The notes beneath the pieces were generated by a model. The model saw only the letters and a list, made by a program, of their open reading frames with translations. It was not told the origin of the DNA and did not search any database. From Mustelus asterias (Eukaryota): DNA of 64,000 nucleotides. This document shows, piece by piece, positions 3,801 to 63,424 of this stretch. The position numbers and the translations under genes were made by a program. The DNA is taken from contig NC_135808.1 of assembly GCF_964213995.1 (NCBI RefSeq), forward strand, positions 20,584,001 to 20,648,000, read 5' to 3'. Each line of letters starts with the position of its first letter. Positions within the stretch are counted from its first letter, which is position 1.

Positions 3801-6800
3801 ATCTCTACAGTGCAGGAGACCATTCGGCCCATTGAATCGGTACCAACTTTGCATCTTACCCAGCAACACCCCCCCCCCAACCACCACGGCAATCCAAGCT
3901 CCTCAACCCCGATTCTGCATCTTACTGCCCCCCCCCCACCCCCACCGCAACCCGAACTCCTTAACCCCCAATACACCTTACCTACACAACCTGGGACACT
4001 AGGGTAAAAGCAAATTAGTGCGGGATGCTGGAATCTGAAACCGAAAGAGAAAAGGCTGGAAAATCTCAACAGGTCTGGCAGCATCTGTGAGGAGAGAAAA
4101 GAGCTGACGTTTCGAGTCCAGATGACCAACTCTGACCAGCTTTGACATCGAGTCATAGAATCATAGAAACCCTACAGTGCAGAAAGAGGCCATTTGGCCC
4201 ATCGAGTCTGCACCGACCACAATCCCACCCGGGCCCTACCACCATATCCCTACATATTTTACCCGCTAATCCCTCTAATCTACGCATCTAAGAGGCAATT
4301 TTAGCATGGCCAATCAACCTAACCCGCACATCTTTGGACTGTGGGAGGAAACCGGAGCACCCGGAGGAAACCCACGCAGACACCAGGAGAATGTGCAAAC
4401 TCACACAGACAGTGACCCAAGCCGGGAATCGAACCCAGGTCCCTGGAGCTGTGAAGCAGCAATGCTAACCACTGAGCTACCATGCCGCCCCATAGGGTCA
4501 TCTGGACTCGAAATATCAGCTCTTTTCTCTCCTTACAGATGCTGCCAGACCTGCTGAGATTTTCCAGCATTTTCTCTTTTGCTTTGGGACACTGAGGGGC
4601 AATTTAGGAAGGCCAATCCACCTAACCAAGCATCCAAGTGCCTTTTTTTTTTGAAGTGGTGAGTGTTTCGGTCACGACTACTATTTCACGCAGTGAATTC
4701 CAACCCCTGCCCCCAAACTTTGGTCGAAAACTTCTTCAATCTCTTTGAATGTTATCGGTGTGAATTTCCAAACAATGGATGCATAAATGCTGACAATTAC
4801 TCACCTTTGGGCCTGTCGAAGATCTAACGAACAAGGAGACAAAAAAATTGTATTACATACCACATACCCTCATACATTCTCTCCATCAATCCCATCCTTC
4901 CTTTATAGAATAGAATCCCTACAGTGCAGAAGGAGGCCATTCGGCCCATCAAGTCTGCACTGACCACAATCCCACCCAGGCCCTATCCACATAACCCCAT
5001 GCATTTTACCCTAGCTAGCCCCCCCACCCCCCCACCCCCCCCACACTAAGGGGCAATTTAGCATGGCCAATCCATCTAACCCGCACATCTTTGGACTGTG
5101 GGAGGAAACCGGAGCATCCGGAGGAAACCCACATAGATACGGGGAGAATGTGCAAACAGTGACCCAAACTGGGACTCGAACCCGGGTCCCTGGCGCTGTG
5201 AGGCAGCAGTGCTAACCACTTCCTCTCACTTTCCTCCACCTCACACCCACATGCGCTGTGTTGTGCATCACTCCCTTAAATGCCTCCCTCCCTCTCGCCC
5301 CAATCTCCCTCGTATACCTCCCTGCGTGATACTCTACCTCCTACAAACCCCTTTCTCCCTCTCACCCTTCCCTCCTGTATGGCCCTCACTACTCAGATGC
5401 CTCTCTCCGTCATATCGCTCTCTTTATTCGGCCATTTTAAACCTTTGATTAAAATAAAGCTGGAGATTGATGAGTCAAAGCACAGCATGATCCCAGGACA
5501 TGGAGAAATAGAGACTTTGCTTCAAAATCATCAGTTGTGCCAAGTGATTCAATAGGTACAAGAAGCATGCACCATATAAATAGAAGGTGATTGAGGGGTG
5601 GTCTAAGGGAAATTTTGAGACTTTCATGGGGGCGCGGGAAGTGGAGGGCATAATATTTCTGTTTGTCAGGAAGGTGGAGGCCATACAAGATGATTTCCTC
5701 AAGTCGAACCGGGAGATGCCGGATCTGATCCTGGAGCAAGAGCAATAAACACTGCCCGGCACCAGAGCTTTCTGGCCTGGAAGTTGTCCTACTACCCGCT
5801 GGAGAGCACAAGACCATAAGATACAGGAGCAGAATTAGGCCATTTGGCCCATCGCATCTGCTTCCCCCATTCGATCATGGCTGATAGGTTTCTCAACCCT
5901 CATTCTCCCAGCTTTCCCCCGTAACCTTTGATCCCCTTATCAATCAAGGACCTATATATCTCTGTCTCAGATATACTCAATGACTTGGCCTCCACAGCCT
6001 CCTGCGGCAATGAATTCCACAGATTCATCACGGGGTGGCACGGTAGCGCAGTGGTTAGCACTGCTGCTTCATAGCTCCAGGGTCCCGGGTTCGATTCCCA
6101 GCTCGGGTCATTGTCTGTGTGGAGTTTGCACGTTCTCCTCGTGTCTGCGTGGGTTTCCTCCGGGTGCTCCGGTTTCCTCCCACAGTCCAAAGATGTGCGG
6201 GTTAGGTTGATTGGCCAGGTTAAAAATTGCCCCTTAGAATCCTAAAATGCGTAGGTTAGAGGGATTAGCAGGTAAAATATGCGGGGGTAGGGCCTGGGTG
6301 GGATTGTGGTCGGTGCAGACTCGATGGGCCGAATGGCCTCCTTCTGCACTGTAGGGTTTCTATGATTTCTATGATTTCTATGATTACCCTCTCTAAAGAA
6401 ATTCCTCCTCATCTCGGTTCTAAAATGTCGTTTCTTTATCATAGAATCCTAAAATACCGCGAGAGTACAGAAGGAGGCCATTCAGCCCATTAAATCTGCA
6501 CCAAACACAATCCCACCCAAAACCTATTCCCGTCACCCCACACATTTACCCTGCTCATCCCCTGATACTAGGGTCAATTTAGCATGGCCAATCAACCTGA
6601 CATCTTTGGAGAGTAGGAAGAAACTGGAGCACCCAGAGGAAACCCACACAAACATGGGGAGAAAGTACAAACTCCACACAGACAGTGACCCAAGGCTGGA
6701 ATTGAAACTGGGTCCCTGGTGCTGTGAGGCAGCAGTGCTAACCACTGTGCCACCAATTATTATTCTGAGGCTGAGTCCTCGGATCCTAGTCTTTCCTAAG

Positions 6801-9800
6801 AATGGAATCATCTTTCTCACATCCACTCTATCCAGGCCTTTCAGCATTCTGTAAGTTGCAATGAGATTCTACTCTCCCCAACATTCTTCTAAACTCCATC
6901 AATTACAGACCCAGAATCCTCAAACTCTCCGCATACATCAAGCTTTTCATTCACGGAATCATTCTGGTGAACCTCCTCTGGAGCCTCTCCAGAGGAGGTT
7001 CACGAGAAAGACCTGGTCACGCTGTCCATGGTCTGGGCCAACCCATGCCATAGTGGGCTGCCGTTAGAGTGGGCAAATTATGGGGAAGGTTTTGGAAATG
7101 GCAGATGGAGTTGAGGTTGATGATACACCGTGTTTCACTACAAGAGATGAGGTCATGAAACAAAGAAGATTGAAGCGTTTCCAAGGCAGAGGTCTTTTAA
7201 TGGAACTGTGGTTTCAAAAAACAAAGAACAAAGAACAAAGAAAATTACAGCGCAGAAACAGGCCCTTTGGCCTGCCAAGCCTGCACCGACCATGCTGCCC
7301 GATTTAACGAAAACCACCTCCCCTTTCGGGGACCATATCCCTCTATTCCCATCCTATTCATGTACATGTCAAGACGCCCCTTAAAAGTCACTACCGTATC
7401 CACTTCCACTACCACCCCCGGCAACGAGTCCCAGGCACCCACTACTCTCTGTGTAAAAAAGTCTGCCTCGTACATCTCCTTCAAACCTTGCCCCTCGCAC
7501 CTTAAACCTGTGCCCCCTAATAATTGACTCCTCCACCCTGGGAAAAAGCTTCTGACTATCCACTTTGTCCATGTCCCTCAGTCCTGTAGACTTCTATCAG
7601 GTCGCCCCTCAACCTCCGTCGCTCCAGTGAGAACAAACCAAGTTTCTCCAACATCTCCTCATAGCTAATGCCCTCCATACCAGGCAACATCCTGGTAAAT
7701 CTTTTCTGTAATCTCTCCAAAGCCTCCACATCCTGCTGCAAGATTTCTGGGGGTTGCCAAGAAGAAGGACTGAGTGCACTGAGTCCTTAGTCCCTGATGC
7801 AACAAACAAATCAAGTTTATTGCAAAAGTCTAATCTGAATCTCTGGCAAGATTTTATTCATCTGGTTACATAGAATCCCTACAATACAGAAGGAGGCCAT
7901 TCGGCCCATTGAGCTTGCAGCAACAACAATCCCACCCAGGCCCGATCCCCATAACCCCACACATTTACCCTGCAAATCCCCCTGACACTTAGGGGCAATT
8001 TGACATGGCAAATCAGCCTAACCCACACATCTTTGGAGCATTGAAACAGTGTTACATTGTTAACTGTAAAGCATACAGGGAAAAAAATGTAGCCCTCATA
8101 CACAGTTGTAAATGGGAATTGGGGTAGAACTGGTTAGGGAGTGGCAGTCACAATGCAAAATATCTTCAGCTGGGGTTCAACATTTTAAACCACTTTAGAA
8201 TTGGCATCAAATGCTTGCTTTTAAAACTCAACAGTTAAATCGATGTTCAAGCTACTCTGTTCCTGTGCCAAAATTAAATAAATGATGCCGCTTTTTTCAG
8301 CTATTGCAGGAGGAGAAATCAGTGGGTTTTTTTAAACTGCTTGAAGCAAACACTTAAAGTCTATTTTAATGCAATTAATTTCAGTTGCATTTCACAATCA
8401 GGTTATCTGATGTTGCTTGTTTCATTTTTAAAAATGAAACAAAAGTTAAATTTATGATGGGCACAGTGGTTAGCACTACTGCCTCACAGCGCCAGGGACC
8501 TGGGTTCAATTCCAGCCTCAGGTCACTGTCTGTGTAGAGTTTCCACATTCTCCCCGTGTCTGCGTGGGTTTCCTCCGGGTGCTCCGGTTTCCTCCCACAC
8601 TCCAAAGATGTGCAGGTTAGGCTGATTGGCCATGCTAAAGTGATCCTCGCATCTGGGGGATTAGCAGGGTAAATATGAGAGATTCTGGGAATAGGACAGG
8701 GGTGGGATTGTGGCCGGTGCAGACTTGATGGGCTGAATGGCCTCCTACTATACTGTAGGGATTCTATGATTTTGCTGTTTCAAATTCTAGTTTTGTGGCC
8801 GAAATTGACTCCTCAACATGAAGGGGCAAACTGATTTCATATTATTTCCTGACCTAAACATCGTGTTGTGAGCAGAGTAGATAGTCGGATATATCTTTTT
8901 CATGTGGGGATAGTTTGACACCAAAAACACTCGGTGAGAGATGCACCAGTTGGGTTCCTTCAATGTGTTAAAGGCCTGATACATCTCTGTTCTTGGCCAA
9001 AATACAGAATACTTGTTATCCAGTATCATGTTTCTTTTTTGATTATGATAAAGCCTAAGATTTTAAATATCTGGAGGCTTGGATGCAGAATTAAAAACTC
9101 TTGATCTATTACAGTCTACTCTGGATCTATTGCATGCTACTGATTCTACTTTATTTCTGGAACGCAACAGAAATTCACAATGTTCTGTGTGATTAACGAT
9201 AATCTGCCAAGCGAGGATTTGATCATATTAGACCTTTGTGCTCTTGTGACGAATGTGAATGAAAATGCATTTATGTGGTGCACATTACTTTGTCCTAATT
9301 ACAATTCTGATCTTCTCCGGCATGTAGTGCATTGTTTTTTGACATGGACGATATTTAAAACTGGTGGATGGATGGACGGAAAGAGGAAGGGACAGATGGA
9401 TGGATGGACGGACGGCCAATACACTAGCCAGTGATCAGACCTTGTCCAGGAAATGGATTTAGTTGCATAGTCATAGGATCTCTACAGTACAGAAGGAGGC
9501 CATTCAGTCCATTGTGTCTGTCCCAGCCACAATCCCACACAGGCCTTACTCCCATAACCCCACACATTTACCCTGCTAATCCCCCTGAAACTAGGGTCAA
9601 TTTAGCATGGCCAATCAACCTTACCCGCATATCTTTGTAGTGTGGGAGGAAACCGGAGCGCCTGGAGGAAACCCACGCAGACACGGGGAGAAAGTGCAAA
9701 CTCCACACAGACAGTGAACCCGAGGCCAGAATTGAACCTGGGACCCTGGCACTGTGAGGCACCAGTGCTAACCACTGTGCCGTGATCATGTTGCTGTGCC

Positions 9801-24340: not shown

Positions 24341-25278
24341 TTTATTTTGGAACAATACAGAGGTTATTGCTTGTGATGTTCCCCACCAAATGTAAAGCTT
24401 TCCTCTGTCCATAATTCTGGCCAAAATCCCAGGCAGTTTATAACAAAGCAGCTGATCTCTACACTGGGATAAGGGACAGTTGAAGTTTGTGCCACTGAAT
24501 ACCTCACTAGTGACAAAGATCATTGAATTCTTCACTGTATTAAAGATAGAGTTTTAATATTAAACGATCAGCATCCTGGGGGTTACCATTGACTAGAAGC
24601 TGCACTGGACCAGCCATATACATACTGTGGCTACAAGAACAGGTCAAAGACTAGGAATCCTGCAACAAATAACTTACCTCTTGATTCCCCACAGCCTGTC
24701 CACCGTCTACAAGGCACAAGTCAGGAGTGTGATGGAATAGTCTCCATTTGCCTGGATGAGTGCAGCTCCAACAATACTCAAGAAGCTTAGCACTATTCAG
24801 GAGAAAGCAGCCCGATTGATTGCTACCCCTTCTACCAACATCGAATCCCTTCACCAGCAACACACAGTGGCAGTGTATGTACCATCCACAAGTTGCACTG
24901 CAGGAACTCGTCAAGGCTCCTTTGACAGCACCCTCCAAACCCACGACTTTGACCATCTATAAGGACAAGGGCAGCAGATACATGGGAACACCACTACCTG
25001 GAAGCTCCCCTCCAAGCCACTCATCCTGACTTGGAAATGTTAAGTGTTAAAGTTTCAAGTTAATGTATTATTGTCACAAGTAGGCTTATATCAACACTGC
25101 AATGAAGTTGCTATGAAAATCCCCCAGTCACCACATTATGGCAACTGTTCAGGTACACTGAGGGAGAATTTAGCATGGCCGATGCACCTAACCAGCACAT
25201 CTTTCGGACTGTGCGAGGAAACCGGAGCACCCGGATAAACTCACACAGACACATGGAGAAAGTGCAAACTCCACACAG

Positions 25279-25543
25279 TAAGAAGTCTCACAACACCAGG
25301 TTAAAGTCCAACAGGGTTTATTTGGAATCACGAGCTTTCGGAGCGCTGCTCCTTCATCAGGTGAGTGTTCGTCATCTGTAGTCCTTTCGGGATCTTGTCT
25401 GCTTTATTGCATCTTTGTAGAAACTTGATGAAGGAGCAGTGCTCCGAAAGCTTGTGATTCCAAATAAACCTGTTGGACTTTAACCTGGTATTGTGAGACT
25501 TCTTGCTGTGCCTACTCCAATCCAACGCCGGCATCTCCACATC
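25279..25543. mobile_element. Palindromic Penelope-derived element (family A) with hammerhead cores, inserted in a V-SINE
   Basis: Inverted arms taagaagtctcacaacaccaggttaaagtccaacagg. Near-perfect TSD aaa(c/t)tccacacag. CTGATGA..GAAA on minus at 25336-25360. Confidence 0.8.
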
Positions 25544-28809: not shown

Positions 28810-31800
28810 CTCAGAGAGACACACTCACCGAGAGACACACTCACAGAGAGACACACTCACCGAGAGACACACTCACCGAGAGACACACTCACCGAGAGAC
28901 ACACTCACAGAGAGACATACTCACAGAGAGACACACTCACCGAGAGACACACTCACCGAGAGACACACTCACAGAGAGACACACTCACAGAGAGACACAC
29001 TCACAGAGAGACACACTCACCGAGAGACACACTCACCGAGAGACACACTCACCGAGAGACACACTCACAGAGAGACACACTCACAGAGAGACACACTCAC
29101 AGAAAGACACTCTCATCGAGAGACACTCGCACCGAGAGACACACTCACAGAAAGACACTCTCATCGAGAGACACTCGCACAGAGAGGCACTCTCGCAGAG
29201 AGACACTCTCGCAGAGAGACACTCTCGCAGAGAGACACTCTCACAGAGAGACACTCTCACAGAGAGACACTCTCACAGAGAGACACTCTCACAGAGAGAC
29301 ACTCTCACCGAGAGACACTCTCATTGAGAGACACTCTCACAGGGAGACACTCTCACAGGGAGACACTCTCACAGGGAGACACTCTCACAGGGAGACACTC
29401 TCACAGGGAGACACTCTCACAGGGAGACACTCTCACAGGGAGACACTCTCACAGGGAGACACTCTCACAGGGAGACACTCACACAGGGAGACACTCACAC
29501 AGGGAGACACTCACACAGGGAGACACTCACACAGGGAGACACTCACACAGGGAGACACTCACACAGGGAGACACTCACACAGGGAGACACTCACACAGGG
29601 AGACACTCACACAGGGAGACACTCACACAGGGAGACACTCACACAGGGAGACACTCACACAGGGAGACACTCACACAGGGAGACACTCTCACAGAGAGAC
29701 ACACTCACAGAGAGACACACTCACAGAGAGACACTCTCACAGAGAGACACTCTCACCGAGAGACACTCTCACCGAGAGACACTCTCACCGAGAAACACTC
29801 TCACCGAGAAACACTCTCACCGAGAAACACTCTCACCGAGAAACACTCTCACTGAGAAACACACTCTAGAGAGACACACTCACCAAGAGACACACTCACA
29901 GAGAGGCACACTCACAGAGAGACACACTCACAGAGAGACACACTCACAGAGAAACACACTAAACCGAGAGACACACTCACAGAGAGACACTCTCACAGAG
30001 AGACACTCTCACCGAGAGACACTCTCACCGAGAGACACTCTCACCGAGAGACACTCTCACCGAGAAACACTCTCACCGAGAAACACTCTCACCGAGAAAC
30101 ACTCTCACCGAGAAACACTCTCACCGAGAAACACTCTCACCGAGAAACACTCTCACCGAGAAACACTCTCACCGAGAAACACTCTCACTGAGAAACACAC
30201 TCTAGAGAGACACACTCACCAAGAGACACACTCACAGAGAGGCACACTCACAGAGAGACACACTCACAGAGAGACACACTCACAGAGAAACACACTAAAC
30301 CGAGAGACACATTCACAGAGAGACACTCTCACCGAGAGACACTCTCACAGTGAGACATTCTCATTGAGAGGCACACTCTTAGAGAGACACTCTCACCGAG
30401 AGACACACTCACAGAGAGACACTCTCACAGAGAGACACTCTCACCGAGAGACACTCTCACCGAGAAACACTCTCACCGAGAAACACTCTCACCGAGAAAC
30501 ACTCTCACCGAGAAACACTCTCACCGAGAAACACTCTCACCGAGAAACACTCTCACCGAGAAACACTCTCACCGAGAAACACTCTCACCGAGAAACACTC
30601 TCACCGAGAAACACACTCTAGAGAGACACACTCACCAAGAGACACACTCACAGAGAGGCACACTCACAGAGAGACACACTCACAGAGAGACACACTCACA
30701 GGGAAACACACTAAACCGAGAGACACATTCACAGAGAGACACTCTCACCGAGAGACACTCTCACAGTGAGACATTCTCATTGAGAGGCACACTCTTAGAG
30801 AGACACTCTCACCGAGAGACACACTCACAGAGAGACACTCTCACAGAGAGACACTCTCACAGAGAGACACTCTCACAGAGAGACACTCTCACAGAGAGAC
30901 ACTCTCACAGAGAGACACTCTCACAGAGAGACACTCTCACAGAGAGACACTCACACAGGGAGACACTCACACAGGGAGACACTCACACAGGGAGACACAC
31001 TCACCGAGAGACACACTCACCGAGAGACACACTCACCGAGAGACACACTCACCGAGAGACACACTCACAGACAGACACTCTCACAGAGGGACACTCTCAC
31101 AGAGAGATACACCTTCAGAGAGACACACTCATAGAGAGACATTCTCACAGAGCGACACACTCACAGAGAGACACATTCACAGAGAGACACATTCACAGGG
31201 AAACACACTAAACCAAGAGACACATTCAGAGAGTCACTCTCACCGAGAGACACTCTCACAGAGAGACACTCTCACAGAGAGACACTCTCACAGAGAGACA
31301 CACTCACCGAGAGACACACTCACCGAGAGACACACTCACCGAGAGACCCTCTCACAGAGAGACACTCTCACTGAGAGACAATCACAGACAGACACTCTCA
31401 CGGAGAGACACTCTCACTGAGAGACACATCCTCAGAGAGACACACACACACACAGAGACACTCTCACCGAGAGACACGCTCACCAAGTCACACTCACCGA
31501 GAGACACACTCACAGAGAGACATAGTCACAGAGAGATGCACTCAGCGAGAGACATACTATCAGAGAGACACTCTCACCGAGAGACATACTCAGAGAGAGA
31601 CACGCTCACCGAGACACTCTCACCAAGAGACACACTCACCGAGGCACACTCACCGAGAGACACACTCACAGAGAGACACTCTACCGAGAGACACTCTCAC
31701 CGAGAGACACTCTCACCGAGAGACACTCTGACTGAGACACTCACAGAGAGACACACCCTCAGAGAGACAGACTCACAGAGAGACATTCTCAGAGAGACAC

Positions 31801-32012
31801 TATCACAGAGAGACACACTCATGGAGTGACACACTCGCAGAGAGACCCACTCGCAGAGAGACACACTCGCCGAGAGACACACTCGCCGAGAGACACACTC
31901 ACAGAGAGACACACTCACAGAGAGACACACTCACAGAGAGACACACTCAGAGAGACACACTCAGAGAGACACTCTCATAGAGAGACACACTCAGAGAGAC
32001 ACACTCACAGAG
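28810..32012. repeat. ~3.2-kb minisatellite of 16-bp units (agagacacactcacag and variants) with higher-order duplications
   Basis: Direct reading. The marker ctctagagagacacactcaccaag recurs near 29865, 30200 and 30615. Confidence 0.97.
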
Positions 32013-32248
32013 AGAGCCTGCTCCACCATTCAACACGATCAGGGCTGATCTCAGCTTCAATTCCACTTTCCTTTCTGTCCCTCAGAAAGCTTAATTCCCT
32101 GAGAGACCAGACATCTGTCTTCGCAGTCTTAAACATGTTCAATGATGGAGCATTCACAACCCTCTGGGGTCGGCATCTCCAAATTCTCACAGCCATTTGA
32201 GTGAAGATGTTTGTCTTCATCTCAGTCCGAAAGGATCTTGCAGAAACA

Positions 32249-38790: not shown

Positions 38791-38992
38791 GATGTGGTGA
38801 TGCCGGCGTTGGATTGGGGTGGGTACAGTAAGAAGTCTCACAACACCAGGTTAAAGTCCAACAGGTTTATTTGGAATCACGAGCTTTTGGAGCGCTGCGC
38901 CACTCCCTGATGAAGGGGCAGTGCTCTGAAAGCTCGTGATTCCAAATAAACCTGTTGGACATTAACCTGGTGTTGTGAGACTTCTTACTGTG
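38791..38992. mobile_element. Palindromic Penelope-derived element (family A) with hammerhead core
   Basis: Inverted arms. CTGATGA-AGGGGCAGTGCTCT-GAAA at 38907-38931. Confidence 0.8.
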
Positions 38993-40630
38993 CTTAAATG
39001 TTGTGAGGGTTCTCGCCGCGACCACCCTTTCAGGTAATGAGTTCCAGATTCCCACCATCCTCTGGGTGAAAAAGCTTTCCTCAAATCCCCTCGCAATCGT
39101 CTGCCCCTTACCTTAAATCTAAGCCCCCTGATTATTGACCCCTCGACTAAGGGAAAAAGTTCTTTCCTATCTACCCTCTCTATTTCCCTCATAATTCTGT
39201 ACACCTCAAACAGGCCCCCCTTCAGCCTTCTCTGCTCTGAGGAGAACAGCTCCAGCCTAACCAGTCTCTCATCAGAGCTGAAACGCTCAAGTCCAGGTAA
39301 CAACCAGGTGAATCTCCTCTGCACTCTTTCTCGTGCAATCACATCTTTCCTATCGTGTGGCGACCAGAACTGCACGCAGCACTCTCGCTGTGGCCTAAGG
39401 AGTGTTTTATACAGCTCCATCATAACCTCCCTGCTCTTATATTCTCTGCCTCTGCTAGTACAGGCAAATATCGCATATGCCTTCTTAATCATCTCATCTA
39501 CTTGTCCTGCTGCCTTCAGGAACCTGCACATGCATCCCAAGGTCCATCTGATCCTAGCGTCCTACCATTCATTGTATATTCCCTTGCCTTGTTCGTCCTC
39601 CCAAAATGCATCACCTCACACTTTTCAGGGTTAAATTCCATTTGCCACTGCTCTGCCCATCTGACCAGCCCGTCGATATCACTCTCTCAGCTAAGGCTTT
39701 CTACTTCACTATTTACCACACCACTAATTTTTGTGTCATCTGTGAACTTACTGACCATACCTCATACTTTCACATCTAGATCATTAATCTACACTACAAA
39801 CAGCAAGTGATCGAGCACCGATCCCTGTGGTACCCCACAGGGCACAAGGTTCCAGTCACTAAAACAACCTTCAACCATCACCCTCTGCCTCCAGCCACAA
39901 AGACAATTTTGGATCCAATTTGCCAAATTGCCCTGGATCCCATGGGTTCTTACCTCCTTGATCAGTCTCCCATGCAAGACCCCATGAAAGGCCTAACTGA
40001 AGTCCATGTACTCTGCATCAACTGCATTGCCCTCATCTATGCACCTAGAATCATAGAATCCTACAGTACAGAAGGAGGCCATTCAACCCATCGAGCCTGC
40101 ACTGACCACAATCCCATCCAGGCCCTATCCCCATTACCCCATGTATTTAACCTAGCTAGTCCCCCTGACACTAAGGGGCAATTTAGCACAGCCAATTCAC
40201 CTAACACACACATTTTTGGACTGTGGGAGGAAACCGGATCACCCGGAGGAAACCCACGCAGACACGGGGAGAATGTGCAGACTCCACACAGACAGTGACC
40301 CAAGCTGGGAATTGAACCCGGGTCCCTGGCGCTGTGAGGCAGCAGTGCTAACCATTGTGCCACCTAGTCACCTCCTTGAAAAGTTCAATGAAATTTGTTA
40401 GACATGATCTCCCCTTGACAAAGCCATGCTGACTGTCCTTGATTAATCCTTGCCTCTCCAAGAGAGATTAATTCTGTCCCTCGGAATGTTTTCCAATGGT
40501 TTCCCTCCCACCGACGTTAGACTCACTGACCTGTAATTGTCTGGATTTTCACTACTTCTTTTCTCGAATAAGGCACCACATTCGTTGTCCTCCAGTCCTT
40601 GGAAACTTCCCCTGTAGGCAGAGAGGATAT
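38993..40630 (-). mobile_element. CR1 LINE RT fragment (frameshifted) with HE1 SINE 40046-40363
   Basis: NYRSVSLTSV, GVPQGSVL, LYKTLLRPQRECCVQFWSP. Confidence 0.9.
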
Positions 40631-40667
40631 GGCAATTAGCATCAAAGCTGCTGCAATCTCTTATCTT

Positions 40668-40968
40668 GGGGTAGCATGGTGGCACAGTGGTGAGCATTGC
40701 TGCCTCAAAGTGCCAGGGACCCGGGTTTAATTCCCAGCTTGGGTGCGAAGTCTGCATGTTCTCCTCTGTGTCTGTGTGGGCTTCCTCCGGGTGCTCTGGT
40801 TTCCTCCCACAATCCAAAAGACGTGCAGGTGAGGTGCATTGGCCGTGCTAAATTCTCCCTCAGTGTAACCGAATAGGTGCCGGAGTGTGGCGACTAGGGG
40901 ACTTTCACAGTAACTTAATTGCAGTGTTAATGTAAGTCTACTCGTGACACTAATAAATAAACTTTAAA
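40668..40968 (+). mobile_element. V-SINE with alternative (non-HE1) tail
   Basis: HE1-type head and V-domain, then ttctccctcagtgtaaccgaataggtgccggagtgtggcgactagggg..aataaataaactttaaac. Confidence 0.8.
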
Positions 40969-41402
40969 CAAAGCAGCGTGGGATACATCACGTCAGTGGA
41001 TCGATCCACTTTTTGGCCCACTAAAACCACTAATATCTCCCACCAGTAGATGGTGGTATGGAGGCGGTGACTGACGGCAGTGACACAGGGGCACCAGCAG
41101 ATGGTGGTAGAGGAGTGACTGAGGGCAGTGAGTTACAGATACAGCAGATGGAATCGTCGAGTCGTCCTGCGCAGGAAAGGCCCTTCGGCCCTTCGGCCCA
41201 TCGAGTCTGCACCGACAATAATTACCGCTAAAGTCGCACTAATCCCATTTTCCAGCACTTGTCCCATATCCTTGAATGTTGTGATATTTCAATGCCCATC
41301 AAAATAGGTTTGAAAGGTTGTAAGGTTTCCAGCCTCCACTACCTTCCCAGGCAGCGCATTCCAGATTCCCACCGTCCTCTGAGTGAATTTGTTTCTCAAA
41401 TC

Positions 41403-41440
41403 TCGCTTCTCGGCCTTTTGGCTAAGATCAAGTGTAGTAT
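41403..41440 (+). pseudogene. RNU2: U2 snRNA 5' fragment (stem I + branch-point recognition GTAGTA)
   Basis: tcgcttctcggccttttggctaagatcaagtgtagtat matches the recalled vertebrate U2 5' end. No Sm site or 3' domain. Confidence 0.92.
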
Positions 41441-41736
41441 GGATCGCCTGCACTTGGTTGAGGTCATCAGGTTACGCTGAGGCTTCATATGTTTCATATG
41501 AAGCAATTTTTAAAAGCGGCATCTCGGCCTTTTGGCTAAGATGCAAATGAGCTCAAGTCTTGGAGGAGGAACCTCCCCCTTCTCCAATCAGCTTGGCTCA
41601 TGAAGATCAGGCCCAGGACAGGGTGGTTTTGGTCTCCCGTCCTGTCTTGTCAGCCTGGATCTGAAATGTCTCAACTTGTTGAGACTCTGAATTGGATTTG
41701 ATTTGATTGAATTGGAAAAGTATTTTTTTTTTTTAA
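41403..41736 (+). mobile_element. U2 snRNA-headed structured retroposon (SINE-like) with 14-bp TSD
   Basis: 41403-41440 is identical to U2 nt 2-39. A second U2 piece (nt 7-27) lies at 41522-41542. TSD ttgtttctcaaatc at 41389-41402 and 41737-41750, splitting a CR1 fragment. Confidence 0.85.
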
Positions 41737-42124
41737 TTGTTTCTCAAATCCCCTCTGAATCCCCTGCCCCTTACCCTAAAACTATGCCCCCTCGTGATTG
41801 ACCCCGGTTACTGTTCACCCTGTCCATCCCCTCATAATTTTATACACCTCAATCATGTCTTTGCTCCAAAGAAAACAATCCAAACCTATCCAGTCTCTCC
41901 TTATAGCTCAAATGCTCCATCCCAGGCAACGTCCTGGTGAACCTCCTCTGTACCCCATCTCGTGCAATCACATCCTTCCTATAGTGAGTCCCAGAACTGC
42001 ACACAGTGCTCCAGCTCCGACATAACCTCCTTGCTCTTATATTCTATGCCATGAATGATAAAAACAAGTCTCCCATATGCCTTCTTAACTATCCTCTTCA
42101 CCTGCTCTGCTGCCTTCCGTGATC

Positions 42125-43003
42125 TGTGACGGTGATGGTCACAGAGAGGCGTGACTGAAGGTAGTGTGACAGGGGCACCAGCAGATGGTGGTAGAGAGAG
42201 AGGTGACTGAAGGCAATGAGACAGGTCACCAGCAGATGGGGATAGAGAGCAGGCTAACACAGGGCAGTGAGACTTTGATTTGGTTTGATTTGATTTATTA
42301 TTGTCACATGTATGAGTATACAGTGAAAAGTATTGTTCGTTGTGCGCTATACAGATAAAGCATACCGTACACAGAGAAGGAAAGGAGAGAGTACAGAATG
42401 TAGTGTTACAGTCATAGCTGGGGTGTAGAGAAAGATCAGCTTAATGCAAGGTAGGTCCATTCAAAAGTCTGACAGCAGCAGGGAAGAAGCTGTTATTGAG
42501 TCGGTTGGTACGTGACCTCAGACTTTTGTATCTTTTTCCCGGTGGAAGAAGGTGGAAGAGAGAATGTCCGGGGTGCGTGGGGTCCTTAATTATGCTGGCT
42601 GCTTTTCCCAGGCAGCGGGAAGTGTAGACGGAGTCAATGGATGGGAGGCTGGTTTGCGCAATGGATTGGGCTTCGTTCATAACCCTTTGTAGTTTCCTGC
42701 GGTTTTGGGCAGAGCAGGAGCCACACCAAGCTGTGATACAACCAGAAAGGATGCATTCTATGGTGCATCTGTAAAAGTTGGTGAGAGACACGGCACTCAG
42801 AAATGGTAATAGAGAAAGGGGTGACAGAGGGCAGTGAATCAGGTGCACCAGCAGATGGTGATAGAGAGGGGGGGGTGACAGAGGGCAGTGTGACGGGGCA
42901 CCAGCAGATGGTAATAGAGAGAAGGGGTGACAGAGGGCAGTGTGACGGGGCACCAGCAGATGGTGATAGAGAGAAGGGATGACATAGGGCAGTGTGACAG
43001 GGA
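42125..43003. repeat. ~50-bp degenerate tandem repeat (gggcaccagcagatggtg..gagggcagtgtgac) split by a Rex1/Babar fragment (42277-42788, minus). More copies at 41040-41150
   Basis: Direct reading. The Rex1 peptide in ORF 42441-43061 is CILSGCITAWCG. Confidence 0.8.
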
Positions 43004-43408: not shown

Positions 43409-43805
43409 TAATTTGATTTGATTTGATTTATTATTGTCACATGTATTAGCATACAGTGAAAAGTATTGTTTTTTGCGTGTTATACAGAGCATACAATTTA
43501 TAGAGAAGGAAAGGAGAGGGTGCAGAATATAGTGTTGCAGTCACAGCTAGGGTGTAGAGAAAGATCAACTTAGAGCGAGTCCATTCAAAAGTCTGATGGC
43601 AGCAGGGAAGAAGCTGTTCTTGAGTTGGTTGGTACTTGACCAGACTTTTGTATCTTTTTCCGATGGAAGAAGGTGGAAGAGAGTATGTCCAGGGTGCATG
43701 AGGTCCTTGATTATGCTGGCTGCTTTTCCGAGGCAGCGGGAAGTGTAGACAGAGTTAATGGATGGGAGGCTGGTTTGTGTGATGGACTGGGCTTCGTTCA
43801 TGACC
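43409..43805 (-). mobile_element. Rex1/Babar-type LINE 3' fragment
   Basis: [22 protein letters not shown], (atttg)n tail. Confidence 0.85.
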
Positions 43806-52670: not shown

Positions 52671-53041
52671 NNNNNNNNNNNNNNNNNNNNNNNNNNNNNN
52701 NNNNNNNNNNNNNNNNNNNNNNNNNNNNNNNNNNNNNNNNNNNNNNNNNNNNNNNNNNNNNNNNNNNNNNNNNNNNNNNNNNNNNNNNNNNNNNNNNNNN
52801 NNNNNNNNNNNNNNNNNNNNNNNNNNNNNNNNNNNNNNNNNNNNNNNNNNNNNNNNNNNNNNNNNNNNNNNNNNNNNNNNNNNNNNNNNNNNNNNNNNNN
52901 NNNNNNNNNNNNNNNNNNNNNNNNNNNNNNNNNNNNNNNNNNNNNNNNNNNNNNNNNNNNNNNNNNNNNNNNNNNNNNNNNNNNNNNNNNNNNNNNNNNN
53001 NNNNNNNNNNNNNNNNNNNNNNNNNNNNNNNNNNNNNNNNN
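52671..53041. other. Assembly gap (N run)
   Basis: Ns. Confidence 1.
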
Positions 53042-54650: not shown

Positions 54651-57600
54651 ATAAGAACATAAGAAATAGGAGCAGGAGTAGGCCATCTAGCCCCTCGAGC
54701 CTGCCCCGCCATTCAATAAGATCATGACTGATCTGAAGTGAATCAGTTCCACTTACCCGCCTGCTCCCCATAACCCTTTATTCCCTTACCGATCAGGAAT
54801 CTATCTATCCGTGACTTAAACAAATTCAACGAGGTAGCCTCCACCACTTCAGTGGGCAGAGAATTCCAGAGATTCACCACCCTCTGAGAGAAGAAGTTCC
54901 TCCTCAACTCTGTCCTAAACTGACCCCCCTTTATTTTGAGGCTGTGCCCTCTAGTTCTGGTTTCCTTTCTAAGTGGAAAGAATCTCTCCACTTCTACCCT
55001 ATCCAGCCCCTTCATTATCTTATATGCCTCTATAAGATCACCCCTCAGCCTTCTAAACTCCAACGAGTACAAACCTAATCTGCTCAATCTCTCCTCATAA
55101 TCTACACCCCTCGTCTCCGGTATCAACCTGGTGAACCTTCTCTGCACTCCCTCCAAGGCCAATATATCCTTTTGCAAGTAAGGGGACCAAAACTGCACAC
55201 AGTATTCCAGCTGCGGCCTCACCAATGCCTTGTACAGATGCAGCAAGACTTCTCTGCTTTTATATTCTATCTCCCTCGTGATAAATGCCAACATCCCATT
55301 TGCCTTCTTGATCACCTGTTGAAAATGCAGACTGAGTTTTTGCGACTCATGCACAAGGACCCCCAGGTCCCTTTGCACAGTAACATGTTGTAATTTTTTT
55401 CCATTTAAATAATAATCCAATTTGCTATTATTTCTTCCAAAGTGAACAACCTCGCATTTGCCAACGTTATACTCCATCTGCCAGATCCTCGCCCACTCAC
55501 TCAGCCTATCCAAATCTCTCTGCAGACCTTCCACTTCCTCCACGCAATTCACTTTCCCACTTATCTTAGTGTCGTCAGCAAACTTTGATACCCTACACTC
55601 AGTCCCCTCCTCCAGATCATCTATGTAAATAGTAAACAGTTGAGGCCCCAGTACTGATCCCTGCGGCACGCCACTAGTCACCAGCTGCCAACCAGAAAAG
55701 CACCCATTTATTCCAATTCTCTGCTTCCTGTTGGATAGCCAATCCCCAATCCACGCTAACACCCTACCCCCAACTCCGTGTACCCTAATCTTCTGCAACA
55801 ACCTTTTGTGAGGCACCTTATCGAATGCCTTTTGGAAATCTAAAAACACCGCATCCACCGGTTCCCCTCTGTCAACCGCACTAGTCACATCTTCATAAAA
55901 ATCCAGTAAGTTCGTCAAACACGACTTTCCCGTCATGAATCCATGCTGCATCTGCTTGATTGAACCATTCTTATCCAGATGTCTTGCTATTTCCTCTTTA
56001 ATGATGGATTCCAGCATTTTCCCAACTACAGACGTTAAGCTAACCGGCCTGTAGTTACCCACCTTTTACTTCCTTTTTTAAACAGCGGCGTAACATTAGC
56101 CATTTTCCAATCAGCGGCAGTACCCCAGAGTCCAGTGAATTTTGATGAATAACCACTAACCCATCCGCTATTACCTCTGACATTTCTTTCAGTACCCTGG
56201 GATGCATTCCATCCGGGCCCGGGGACTTGTCCACTTCAGTCCCGTTAGTCTACCAAGCACTGCCTCTCTGGTAACATTAATTGTATTGAGTATCTCTCCT
56301 CCTACCAATACTCGATCGTTAATATTCGGTAAACTATTTGTGTCTTCCACCGTGAAGACCGACACAAAAAACCTATTTCAAGTCTCAGCCATTTTCTCGT
56401 TTTCCACTATTAAATCCCCCCTCTCGTCCTCCAAGGGTCCAACATTCACTCTAGCCACTCTATTCCTTTTTATATATTTGTAAAAACTTTAACAATTATT
56501 TTTTATGTTTAGAGCTAGTTTAGTTTCATAATCTATCTTTCCTTTCTTTATCGCTTTCTTAGTCGTTCTTTGTTGTTTTTTAAAGCTTTCCCAATCTTCT
56601 AAGTCTCCACTATTTTTGGCCACTCTGTACGCATCGGTTTTTAATTTAATACTCTCCTTAATTTCCTTTGTTATCCACGGCTGGTCATCCCTTTTCTTAC
56701 AGTCCTTCTTTATCACCGGAATATATTGTTGCTGAGTACTGAAAAAGATCTCCTTAAAAATCGTCCACTGTTCCTCAGCTGTCCTACCTACCAGTCTGCT
56801 CCCCCTGTCCACCCTAGCCAATTCAGCTCTCATCCTATCGTACTCCCCTCTGTTCAAGCAGAGGACATTGGTTTGGGACCCTACTTTCTCCCCCTCCAAC
56901 TGCACCAGAAATTCGACCATATTGTGATCACTCGACCCAAGAGGGTCCTTCACAAGAAGATCCTTAATTCTACCTGTCTCGTTACACATTACCAGATCTA
57001 AGATAACTCGTTCCCTCATAGGTTCTGTAACATACTGTTCAAGGAAACTGTCCCGACAGCATTCTAAGAACGCTTCCTCCATCCCACTCCTTCCAACACA
57101 AGTCAGCCAATCAATATGCAGGTCAAAATCCCCCATGATTATTGCCGTTCCGTTTTTGCACGCATCCATTATTTGTTTGTTTATAGCCCTCCCCACCTCA
57201 ACATTATTATTTGGGGACCTATAGACCACATTTACTAGTGTCTTTCTCCCCCTACTATTCCTTATCTCCACCCATAATGATTCCACGTTTTGCTCCTTAG
57301 AGCCTATGTCGTCCCTCACTACTACCCTGATATTATCCTTTATTGTAAGAAGTCTCACAACACCAGGTTAAAGTCCAACAGGTTTATTTGGTAGCAAATA
57401 CCATAAGCTTTCAGAGCAATGCTCCTTCGTCAGATGGAGTGGTCTCTGTTCTCAAACAGGGCACAGACACAGAAATCAAATTACAGAATACTGATTAGAA
57501 TGTAAATCTCTACAGCCAGCCAGGTCTTAAGGTACTGTTTTCTACTGTGGTACCGGGGGAGGCTTGGTTGCTGCTAGAGATGGTTGCGGCTGTAGAGATT

Positions 57601-58005
57601 TACATTCTAATCAGTATTCTGTAATTTGATTTCTGTGTCTGTGCCCTGTTTGAGAACAGATATCCACTCCATCTGACGAAGGAGCATTGCTCCGAAAGCT
57701 TATGGTATTTGCTACCAAATAAACCTGTTGGACTTTAACCTGGTGTTGTGAGACTTCTTACTGTGCTTACCCCAGTCCAACGCCGGCATCTCCACATCAT
57801 TATCCTTTATTAACAGAGCTACCCCACCACCTTTTCCATCCTGTCTATCCTTCCTAAATGCCTGATACCCCTGGATATTCATCTCCCAGTCCTGGTCACC
57901 CTGTAACCACGTTTCTGTAATGGCCACTAGATCGTACCCATTTGTGCTGATTTGTGCCATCAACTCGTTTACTTTGTTCCGAATGCTTCGTGCATTCAGA
58001 TCCAT
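54651..58005 (-). mobile_element. Near-complete CR1/HER1 LINE ORF2 (AP endonuclease + reverse transcriptase), disrupted
   Basis: LNARSIRNK..AITETWL..GGGVAL (EN), MGDF, SDHNMV, then a 439-aa RT frame with NYRPVSLTS, DFQKAFDKV, GVPQGSVLGP, KFADDTK. Confidence 0.95.
57345..57798. mobile_element. Palindromic Penelope-derived element (family A) with two hammerhead cores, inserted in the CR1 endonuclease
   Basis: ~170-bp inverted arms. TSD attatcctttatt at 57332-57344 and 57799-57811. Cores at 57409-57433 (minus) and 57673-57697 (plus). Confidence 0.85.
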
Positions 58006-60358: not shown

Positions 60359-60535
60359 TTGGCTGAGCACTAAATTATCTGTTCTTACTGACAGTGGTAA
60401 TAGGGCGCGCGAGATTGGAGAATTCCAGCCCTTGCCTTATTGCCAAAATTCAGGCACCCCCTTATTCCGCCCCCCCCCCCCCACCCCCATTGCCCTGTAC
60501 TCAGTGTCTTTAGCCATTTCGTGATATCACAGAGA

Positions 60536-61022
60536 TTTTGATTTGATTTGATTTAATTTGTCACATATATTAGTATGCAGTGAAAACTATTATTTCTTAC
60601 ATGCTATACAGACAAAGCATACCGTTCATAGAGAAGGAAAGGAGAGAGTGCAGAATGTTGTGGTCCAATCATAGCTAGGGTGTAGAGAAAGATCAACTTA
60701 ATGCGAGGTAGGTCCATTCAAAAGTCTGACAGCAGCAAGGAAGAAGCTGTTCTTGAGTCGGTTGGTACGTGACCTCAGACTTTTGTATCTTTTTCCCGAA
60801 GGAAGAAGGTGGAAGAGAGAATGTTCGGGGTGCGTGGGGTCCTTAATTATGCTGGCTGCTTTGCTGAGGCAGCGGGATGTGTAGACAGAGTCAACGGATG
60901 GGAGGCTGGTTTGTGTGATGGATTGGGCTACATGCACGACACTTTGTAGTTCCTTGTGGTCTTGGGCAGAGCAGGAGCCACACCAAGCTGTGATACAACC
61001 AGAAAGAATGCTTTCTATGGTA
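60536..61022 (-). mobile_element. Rex1/Babar-type LINE 3' fragment
   Basis: IESILSGCITAWCG..RLKNSFF. Confidence 0.88.
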
Positions 61023-61179: not shown

Positions 61180-63424
61180 AACAAAGAACAAAGAACAATA
61201 CAGCACAGGAACAGGCCCTTCGGCCCTCCAAGCCCGCGCCGCTCCCCGGTCCAGGATTGAATCCTGAATCCAGGATCCCCGCCCAATTTTCCAGCCTATC
61301 TACATACCAATATCCTATCCACCGAGCTGTCCCTCACAGCTACGATGCTTTGTTCATTACAACCTATTAACTTACCCCCACCCCCCCATTCCAGACCATG
61401 TGATCTCCAGGGAGAGGCGAAAACCCAGAGTGAAAAACCCCAGGGCCAATATGGGGAAAAAAAAATCTGGGAAATTCCTCTCCGACCCCCTGAGGCGATC
61501 GAAACGAGTCCAGGAGATCACAATGGCCCCGATCGGAAAATGCTTCCCAACCCTAGTCATTTCCACTTCCACGAACACCATATGAATCCCCTGCCCCCGA
61601 GACAGGTTCCCAACTATCCGCAGTCTCGCTCTGTACTGGCACCAGCAAGATGATCGTAGAATGAAGCCTTGAAACGAGAAAACAGGAACAATTAGCCCCC
61701 GCCGCTCCCTGGTCCAAACTAGATCACTCTTTTGTATCCCTCCATTCCCACTCCGTTCATATAGCTGTCTAGATAAGTCTTAAACGTTCCCAGTGTGTCC
61801 GCCTCCACCACCTTGCCCGGCAACACATTCCAGGCCCCCACGACCCTCTGTGTGAAATATGTCCTTCTGATATCTGTGTTAAACCTCCCCCCCTTCACCT
61901 TGAACCTATGACCCCTCGTGAACGTCACCACCGACCCGGGGAAAAGCTTCCCACCGTTCACCCTATCTATGCCTTTCATAATTTTATACACCTCTATTAA
62001 GTCTCCCCTCATCCTCCGTCTTTCCAAGGAGAACAACCCCAGTTTCCTCAATCTCTCCTCATAACCAAGCCCCTCCATACCAGGCAACATCCTGGTAAAC
62101 CTCCTCTGCACTCTCTCCAAAGCCTCCACGTCCTTCTGGTAGTGTGGCGACCAGAACTGGACGCAGTATTCCAAATGCGGCCGAACCAACGTTCTATACA
62201 TCTGCAACATCAGACCCCAACTCTTATACTCTATGCCCCGTCCTATAAAGGCAAGCATGCCATATGCCTTCTTCACCACCTTCTCCACCTGTGACGTCAC
62301 CTTCAAAGATCTGTGGACTTGCACACCCAGGTCCCTCTGCATCTCTACACCCTTTATGGTTCTTCCATTTATCGTGTAGCTCCTCCCTACATTATTCCCA
62401 CCAAAATGCATCACTTCGCATTTATCAGCATTGAACTCCATCTGCCATTTCCTTGCCCAAATTTCCAGCCTATCTATATCCTTCTGTAGCCTCTGACAAT
62501 GTTCCTCACTATCTGCAAGTCCTGCCAGTTTTGTGTCGTCCGCAAACTTACTGATCACCCCAGTTACTCCTTCTTCCAGATCATTTATATAAATCACAAA
62601 CAGCAGAGGTCCCAATACAGAGCCCTGCGGTACACCACTAGTCACAGGCCTCCAGCCGGAAAAAGACCCTTCCACTACCACCCTCTGTCTTCTATGACCA
62701 AGTAAGAAGTTTAACAACACCAGGTTAAAGTCCAACAGGTTTATTTGGTAGCAAAAGCCACACAAGCTTTCGAGGCTCTGAGCCCCTTCTTCAGGTGAGT
62801 GGGAATTCTGTTCACAAACAGAACTTATAAGACACAGACTCAATTTACATGAATAATGGTTGGAATGCGAATACTTACAACTAATCCAGTCTTTAAGAAA
62901 CAAAACAATGGGAGTGGAGAGAGCATCAAGACAGGCTAAAAAGATGTGTATTGTCTCCAGACAAGACAGCCAGTGAAACTCTGCAGGTCCACGCAACTGT
63001 GGGAGTTACAAATAGTGTGACATAAATTCTGATTCTAGGATCGCATGATAAAGACTCAGGAGGAAAAAAGCAGAAATATTTATGTGAAATAGTGTGACAT
63101 AAACCCAATATCCCGGTTGAGGCCGTCCTTGTGTGTGCGGAACCTGGCTATCAGTTTCTGCTCCGCGACTCTGCGCTGTCGTGTGTCGCGAAGGCCGCCT
63201 TGGAGAACGCTTACCCGAATATCAGAGGCCGAATGCCCGTGACCGCTGAAGTGCTCCCCAACAGGAAGAGAACAGTCTTGCCTGGTGATTGTCGAGCGGT
63301 GTTCATTCATCCGTTGTCGCAGCGTCTATGACCAAGCCAGTTCTCCACCCATCTAGCCACCTCCCCCTTTATCCCATGGGATCCAACCTTTTTCACTAGC
63401 CTACCATGAGGGACTTTGTCAAAC
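61180..63424 (-). mobile_element. CR1 LINE RT fragment with long 3' UTR, interrupted by a Penelope-like element
   Basis: GVPQGSVLGP, KFADDTK, LVRPHLEYCVQFWSP. The N-terminus of ORF 61719-62996 is Penelope sequence. Confidence 0.92.
62703..63324 (-). mobile_element. Penelope-like element 3' end (GIY-YIG C-terminus + pLTR with hammerhead core)
   Basis: MNEHRSTITR..GEHF..VAEQKLIARFRT. TSD tctatgaccaag on both sides. CTGAAGA..GAAA at 62768-62794. Confidence 0.88.

Follow-up and report, generated by a model that had tools for sequence, protein, structure and literature searches.

A U2 snRNA-headed retroposed insert of Mustelus asterias, probably belonging to an undescribed SINEU-like family in elasmobranchs

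The closest described counterparts of the element reported here are the short interspersed elements SINEU-1, -2 and -3 of crocodilians, which carry heads derived from U1 or U2 snRNA, have gained such heads by serial addition, contain internal oligo-T stretches and end in polyA tails, as given in the available part of the original description (PMC4494074, Kojima 2015). The same part reports that they prefer Mariner-N4_AMi as a target, have Tx1-Mar as a partner LINE and were not detected outside crocodilians, poses their mode of transcription as an open question and states that U2 has no internal promoter (PMC4494074). U2 genes are also the target of two groups of LINEs, Keno (Tx1 clade) and Utopia (RLE), which share an insertion site before U2 nt 39 according to the accessible sections of PMC4640811 and PMC6136364. 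SINEs mobilized by RTE-type LINEs, such as Au, AFROSINE and Sauria, are described in the available text of PMC6007223 as having a T-rich or microsatellite tail, a target site duplication (TSD) starting with T and a stem-loop near the 3' end. In addition, tailless U2 retropseudogenes and snRNA/LINE chimeras are by-products of LINE activity, as described in the portions at hand of PMC5322556, PMC2912911 and PMC13174262.

In the literature found by us, largely available in part, snRNA-headed SINEs occur in crocodilians only. No snRNA-headed element in cartilaginous fishes is mentioned in the accessible text of an article on chimaera and shark SINEs (PMC5499810, which lacks the word "snRNA"), of a review of vertebrate transposable elements (PMC5381603) or of an article on a hagfish SINE (PMC7245038). 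We found no paper describing an snRNA-headed SINE in this group in a literature scope that left most subscription journals, Repbase Reports and Dfam outside, and within this scope the element can still be called undescribed, as the initial annotation of this DNA had supposed. The DNA concerned, called the window below, is the whole stretch of 64,000 nucleotides analysed from Mustelus asterias (NCBI RefSeq assembly GCF_964213995.1, contig NC_135808.1, positions 20,584,001 to 20,648,000). It contains a nearly intact U2-headed insert, distinct in its tail and with a head predicted to mask itself, which probably represents a SINEU-like, undescribed family of elasmobranchs.

The insert and its target site

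The insert occupies 41403-41736 (334 bp), is non-coding and interrupts an old LINE fragment. Its parts and surroundings are listed below with the basis of each in brackets.

41151..41388, - strand: host LINE, left part, decayed 3' ORF region (paralogue alignments)
41389..41402, + strand: left TSD, first base T (exact over 14 bp; 16-17 bp if one indel is allowed)
41403..41440, + strand: U2 snRNA head, nt 2-39 (Rfam RF00004 alignment)
41447..41482, + strand: antisense arm pairing with the U2 head as hairpin 1, imperfect (duplex energy, shuffle control)
41482..41504, + strand: hairpin 2, perfect 10-bp stem (predicted fold)
41505..41513, + strand: A/U linker, single-stranded, containing T5 and placed near the position of the U2 Sm site (unpaired in the fold)
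41519..41544, + strand: second U2 copy, nt 4-27, extended stem I as hairpin 3 (identity to head, Rfam, predicted fold)
41547..41601, + strand: hairpin 4, with a 1x3 internal loop, 41559 opposite 41588-41590 (predicted fold)
41604..41662, + strand: hairpin 5, with a 1x3 internal loop, 41613 opposite 41650-41652 (predicted fold)
41668..41685, + strand: hairpin 6, terminal 7-bp stem-loop before the tail (predicted fold)
41691..41736, + strand: T-rich tail, a degenerate GATTT repeat, spacer, T12 and two A (sequence)
41737..41750, + strand: right TSD (identity to the left TSD)
41751..42117, - strand: host LINE, right part (paralogue alignment 41740-42117)

The two copies of the TSD (41389-41402 and 41737-41750) are identical at 14/14 bases, and this 14-mer has no further occurrence on the + strand of the window. 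On the left side, the flank (41313-41387) aligns to a paralogue at 38996-39070 with 76% identity and also to 61801-61856, inside an ORF with a match to Pfam RVT_1, and the right flank (41740-42117) aligns at 67% to 39077-39517, the direct continuation of the left part. Because the TSD is exact and the empty site, composed of the left flank, one TSD and the right flank, is colinear with two paralogues in the window, the insertion is genuine. Since the paralogous ORF has the RVT_1 domain, the insertion hit the decayed 3' coding part of an opposite-strand LINE, which we take to be CR1-like. No U2-like sequence was found in this target fragment, and an Rfam search of the window gave no sequence from U2 nt 39/40 onward on the 3' side of the insert. 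The copy at 41403-41736 has neither an snRNA promoter upstream nor the remainder of U2 downstream, because it is placed within the LINE fragment. The insert is real and young, a retroposed copy in full length of an RNA that has a U2 head and is densely structured. When the TSD is extended leftward it becomes 16-17 bp long with a one-base indel and the tail is then pure T12, so that the two A after the T-run may be target sequence instead of tail. The head shares 1-2 bases of microhomology with the TSD.

The U2 head matches Rfam RF00004 at 46.2 bits against a gathering score of 46, with the strong alignment confined to model positions 1-39, and this is the sole match at gathering level in the window. 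Its 3' limit is U2 nt 38 or 39, the insertion position of Keno and Utopia. A second U2 copy was aligned by Rfam at 41522-41541 (U2 positions 7-26), and it is identical to the head at 23/24 bases over 41519-41542. At 41593-41609 there may be a third fragment of U2, but it is weak, as 17/3511 control windows score equally well, and we do not claim it. The insert shows none of the features of a functional U2 gene: the strict Sm pattern is absent, only nt 2-39 align well, and the upstream sequence is the LINE fragment. Over the insert body no Rfam family besides U2 reaches its gathering score; weak sub-threshold matches to SNORD94, miRNA and other families were regarded as chance hairpin matches, and apparent resemblances to 7SK, U1 and U4 were dropped since Rfam did not support them. 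A ribozyme or retrozyme was likewise rejected, as neither strand has a hammerhead core and no ribozyme family is among the nine Rfam matches with E of 10 or less.

The tail begins with GATTT units, about 2.5 of them, followed after a short spacer by T12 (41723-41734) and two A, and the insert contains no polyA tail and no polyadenylation signal. With consensus patterns, no A box and no B box were found in the insert. Five T-runs are present, namely four internal runs of 4-5 and the tail. Transcription by Pol III is unlikely because of the internal T-runs and the lack of A and B boxes, and a Pol III SINE head was rejected on the same early T-runs and missing boxes. The longest stop-free run in the insert is 53 codons, and a coding role was also rejected. 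The perfect 14-bp duplication around an insert of about 335 bp, the start with U2 nt 2-39, the second stem-I copy at 41522-41542, the halt of the head at the Keno/Utopia position, the ending in (gattt)n with a T run and the retroposition to a non-U2 site had all been proposed in the initial annotation, and every one of them agrees with the alignments given above.

Half of the RTE signature is present, that is, the T-rich tail and, in the 14-bp reading only, the T-starting TSD. T is found at 3/9 positions around -10, where the expected T stretch is a statistical signature and weak from one copy. RTE-type priming fits a T-rich tail at a T-starting TSD, and Tx1/L1-type priming on the two terminal A would suit the longer TSD. 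Within the 64-kb window no partner LINE shares the tail in the sense direction. The tail at 41691-41736 aligns, with a 23-nt gap, to the 3' end of a different LINE family of the window when that end is reverse-complemented; this family is presumably Rex1-like, and its tail-like 3' ends lie at 42277-42350, 43410-43480, 60534-60600, 44870-44790 and 14470-14400. The first TSD bases resemble the continuation of this LINE. A master copy may have read into such an antisense LINE end, or the likeness may be a low-complexity coincidence.

The remainder of the window is rich in repeats, and its self-repeated share amounts to 35,775 bases, more than half of the total. An interspersed repeat of roughly 330 bp, probably of the HE1/V-SINE type of sharks by our assumption, has about 35 copies in the 64 kb (e.g. 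40648-40969, 4902-5223 and 9458-9788). Broken LINE coding regions with reverse transcriptase (RT) domains and an endonuclease domain lie at 54743-57367 (-) and 61719-63005 (-). When an RT ORF of the window was compared with known proteins, the named vertebrates with the highest identity in the 120 matches listed were Chiloscyllium punctatum (68%), Hypanus sabinus (66%) and Pristis pectinata (60%), and birds, turtles and bony fish reached at most 54% among the same matches, which places the host with the elasmobranchs. Seven hammerhead-core motifs with a paired stem II were found outside the insert (38907+, 50200+, 57673+, 62794-, 57433-, 25360- and 15411-), all unreported by Rfam at gathering level; several are within a repeated element forming long palindromes (about 38815-38995 and 25275-25505), which we take to resemble the minimal hammerheads of Penelope-like terminal repeats. 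A near-perfect inverted repeat with arms of about 80 bp (57449-57660) lies between two copies of this hammerhead-bearing repeat. A satellite of 3.2 kb (28812-32015) contains 201 copies of a 16-bp unit, and its long ORFs and their matches to the Pfam domain "Fibrinogen_BP" were rejected as repeat artefacts. A minisatellite of 51-52 bp (42143-42273 and 42803-43002) is split by a LINE 3' fragment and has related sequence at 41041-41151, and an assembly gap of 371 N (52671-53041) adjoins a GT-rich microsatellite.

Predicted fold of the element

All of the evidence on the fold is predicted and comes from one sequence. The insert folds with a z value of -7.7, or -9.2 without the tail; with the TSDs included the value is -8.4, and 0/100 shuffles were as good. 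In raw folding energy, seven other 334-nt tiles of the 378 in the window are lower than the tile of the element, and the three strongest of these are long perfect palindromes. The predicted structure favours the + strand (z of -9.2, 12 G-U per 100 pairs) because both its z value and its number of G-U pairs are better than those of the - strand (z of -5.7, 5 G-U per 90 pairs). An element on the minus strand, which would begin with an A-run and finish in antisense U2, folds worse and was rejected. Four consecutive hairpins had been read from the letters in the initial annotation (41482-41504, 41547-41601, 41604-41662 and 41668-41685), and the folding recovered all of them with a mean pair probability of 0.83-0.99 per helix.

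In hairpin 1, the U2 head pairs with the antisense arm through an upper helix (41426-41437/41448-41459) of 12 bp with 3 G-U and zero mismatches. The head/arm duplex has an energy of -33.4 kcal/mol, and among 6691 scanned windows of both strands just four do better, each of them a reverse complement of one of the U2 copies; the limits of the arm entering this comparison were chosen after the fold was known. The mean unpaired probability of U2 nt 25-36 is 0.006, a level reached by 0/200 shuffled-body controls. Folded alone, the head leaves 5/6 of the branch-point-pairing bases open. The antisense arm would lock the U2 head in the predicted fold, so that the branch-point motif is kept but masked. 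The initial annotation had stated that GTAGTA is retained: the hexamer is indeed present, but the usable arm that this implied is contradicted by the full predicted fold, in which 4/6 of its bases are predicted to be paired. The arm equals the reverse complement of the head at only 22/40 aligned columns, and pairing is still kept. Because native stem I, if forced, costs just 4.5 kcal/mol, stem I itself may be switchable.

The linker at 41505-41513 fits a relaxed Sm pattern and misses the strict consensus for want of a G; its alignment with the U2 Sm site is of low confidence. A bipartite module of 16 nt surrounds the 1x3 loop, itself identical, in both hairpin 4 and hairpin 5, and 13/16 of its bases agree. 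Pairing is retained at all three differing positions, two of which make up a double change within one pair. When only independent positions are counted, 8/10 are identical (binomial P of 4e-4, uncorrected for the post-hoc choice). If up to three differences are allowed, 19 out of 3.3 million placements in the window carry the module, four of them within the element. In global alignments of the hairpins, shuffles were as good in 8/2000 cases for 4 versus 5, 0/2000 for 1 versus 4 and 57/2000 for 1 versus 5, where the nulls ignore self-complementarity and overstate significance. Hairpin 6, which precedes the tail, may serve as a recognition element for reverse transcriptase.

Occurrence in sequencing runs and possible origin

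The 64-kb window has a single copy of the element, compared with about 35 of its commonest repeat, and any family is thus of low or moderate copy number. Outside the window, 20 of the 24 listed sequencing runs, from 13 studies, hold the stretch or part of it. In a list that was ranked by holders and in which the coded organism labels may not all be elasmobranchs, 17/24 runs hold a share of 0.26-0.65 of the 31 sampled words; these come from 11 studies and bear 10 organism labels and two metagenome labels. When the study coded P1, a possible source, is left out, there are 13 rows from 10 studies with nine organism labels other than that coded A. The U2 part wholly contains just 8/290 words, so shares of at least 0.35 do not derive from U2 genes, since at most 8 words can come from that part; a share of 0.26 from U2 genes would require all 8 words (P of 7e-9 under uniform sampling). 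Rows X18-X20 (shares of 0.10-0.13) were set aside because U2 alone could give 3-4 words (P of 0.043 and 0.006), and rows X7, X16 and X17, guessed to be RNA, were excluded from the evidence. Rows X21-X24, added from the same study, hold next to none of the sampled words. There is no RNA holder of the element among the sequencing runs listed.

The holder runs include nine of 17 with 1-380 million contig letters, compared with about 2,400 million for the deepest, and nine of the 17 rows cluster at a word share of 0.35-0.39. Small holder runs and a shared level fit a repeated or abundant sequence with a common core, and the same table could also result if slowly evolving relatives had inherited one orthologous copy. 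Word shares of 0.35-0.65 correspond to a divergence of 1.4-3.3%. The body of the candidate element is present in many other sequencing runs, and a family of several copies would be one reading of this. Two pattern scans for body motifs gave 0 matches in viral contigs, and 0/36 loci (seven in metagenome contigs and 29 in genome contigs) were similar beyond the motif; the collections scanned are mostly microbial and exact matches were demanded, so that these blanks say little.

We consider the insert to be probably one copy of a small mobile-element family, putatively multi-copy and expressed. The origin to which we give somewhat better than an even chance is a family of short non-autonomous SINEU-like retroposons that arose independently, with a master copy behind a U2 promoter and movement by a LINE in trans. 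As U2 lacks an internal promoter and this copy lies in a LINE fragment, the source would be elsewhere, most simply behind a U2 promoter. The master copy would be placed behind the external Pol II promoter of a U2 gene, its RNA would start at the U2 5' end, and this RNA is predicted to fold into six hairpins with the antisense arm locking the U2 head. A head locked in this manner would stay out of spliceosome assembly and shield the RNA. The body may have grown via repeated addition or duplication of U2-derived units, each stabilized by a complementary arm, and the full-length U2 5' end and the second U2 copy resemble the recurrent head additions of SINEU-1. Since the head and TSD are intact and the arm is diverged (22/40) yet pairing, head and body are co-adapted, and the fused RNA must have evolved before the insertion, which speaks most strongly against a one-off chimera. 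The TSD shows target-primed reverse transcription, by which the RNA of this copy was written into a staggered break in an unrelated old LINE with a duplication of 14-17 bp. The enzyme would have been supplied in trans by an APE-type LINE, and this copy would be a young, promoterless daughter.

Several other origins have been weighed against this family. An unlikely one is that the insert is a processed pseudogene of a conserved, expressed host ncRNA, that is, a U2-derived snRNA-like gene with the promoter and 5' end of U2 and hairpins replacing the rest, whose masked head would serve as a conformational switch or decoy. Such a gene would account for the beginning at the U2 start site, the dense + strand structure with G-U pairs, the Sm-like linker with U5 that separates hairpins near where the Sm site of U2 lies, the repeated identical internal loop, which could be a protein site, and a native stem I that refolds for 4.5 kcal/mol; the nine of 17 holder rows at 0.35-0.39 are also expected if many organisms share one conserved source. 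However, the strict Sm consensus is missed, the body lacks a non-U2 Rfam family at gathering score, serial U2 fragments are typical of template switching in retroposons, and mobile RNAs are selected for stability as well, so that structure does not equal host function. In a bolder version, which we regard as unlikely, the insert would be the footprint of an undescribed, expressed, U2-built RNA of elasmobranchs with a U2 promoter, a self-hidden splicing arm (a locked branchpoint-interacting stem loop) and a repeated hairpin module for protein binding. Such an RNA would be conserved in many species, as an snRNA-like regulator of the host or as a selfish, long-lived parasite of snRNA transcription.

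The junction at U2 nt 38/39 brings in a non-autonomous deletion derivative of Keno or Utopia, formed at that site with a co-transcribed U2 5' fragment and copied off target, which seems improbable to us. The head does end at the shared site, after which downstream U2 starts at nt 39; the available text on these LINEs records Keno from frogs, fish, lancelet and hydra and off-target insertion of reptile Utopia, and for an element transcribed out of a disrupted U2 gene it would be fitting that the U2 fragment is masked. But U2 nt 39 onward is missing 3' of the insert, the LINE-fragment target is not U2-like and no coding remnant is present, and truncated U2 5' pieces arise without Keno or Utopia. 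According to the same partial sources, the 20-bp U2 duplications of reptile Utopia would extend the upstream U2 piece past nt 39 and off-target Utopia copies rarely show TSDs, and the main text of PMC4640811, as far as available, does not contain the word "shark". In the initial annotation's idea of a non-autonomous U2-targeted element, the junction stands but the target is not U2. Nor is the position of the junction diagnostic, given that LINE activity is known to yield 3'-truncated U2 retrocopies and U2/LINE chimeras as by-products. We think it very improbable that the insert is a single-copy chimeric retrocopy, made by switching template from a structured RNA to U2 and inherited by related species as an orthologue from one insertion in their common ancestor. 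The single copy in the window, the known U2/LINE and U2/Alu chimeras and a divergence of 1.4-3.3%, possible at one locus among related slow-evolving species, are consistent with it; a one-off switch, however, leaves unexplained the head-complementary body with its diverged, wobble-tolerant pairs, the second U2 copy and the paralogous hairpins, and many of the holder runs are small.

The head-masking antisense arm, the 16-nt module of the paired hairpins and the word matches in other sequencing runs are new beyond the initial annotation. If an independent elasmobranch element is the true source, the snRNA-headed design recurs and the transcription question of SINEU becomes testable, and the predicted masking of U2 by the arm suggests how such an RNA avoids disturbing splicing. 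If the source is a conserved host RNA, a new snRNA-like gene is at hand, and if the insert is single-copy or already in Repbase, its value is that of annotation.

Comparison with known systems

The insert resembles U2 retropseudogenes and chimeras in having a 5'-complete, 3'-truncated U2 piece in a TSD-flanked insertion, and differs from them, as far as they are described in the sources available, by a structured, head-complementary body of 295 nt between the U2 piece and the TSD. With Keno and Utopia it shares the junction at U2 nt 38/39. In contrast to these LINEs it has no ORF, lies outside a U2 gene and lacks the 3' part of U2; they are set apart here by their description in the accessible text, and not by their termini. 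The T-rich tail, the T-starting TSD and the stem-loop near the 3' end are common to the insert and the RTE-mobilized SINEs of PMC6007223, whereas the Pol III heads and the T stretch near -10, both reported for those SINEs in its available part, are absent here.

The most extensive likeness is to SINEU. Both are shorter than 500 bp and non-coding, with a U2-derived 5' head, a TSD and serial snRNA-derived pieces, both contain internal oligo-T and no Pol III boxes, and both would depend on an outside promoter and a LINE in trans. The insert, however, has a T-rich tail, whereas all SINEU groups in the available description have polyA. Its target is a LINE fragment and not Mariner-N4 as described there, although a single insertion says little about a preference. 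Its host is an elasmobranch and not a crocodilian. The predicted head-masking antisense arm and the repeated hairpin modules are also unlike SINEU as described, the bodies being compared by partial description only. We therefore do not file the insert as a member of SINEU: it works alike, but differs in polyA tail, target and host.
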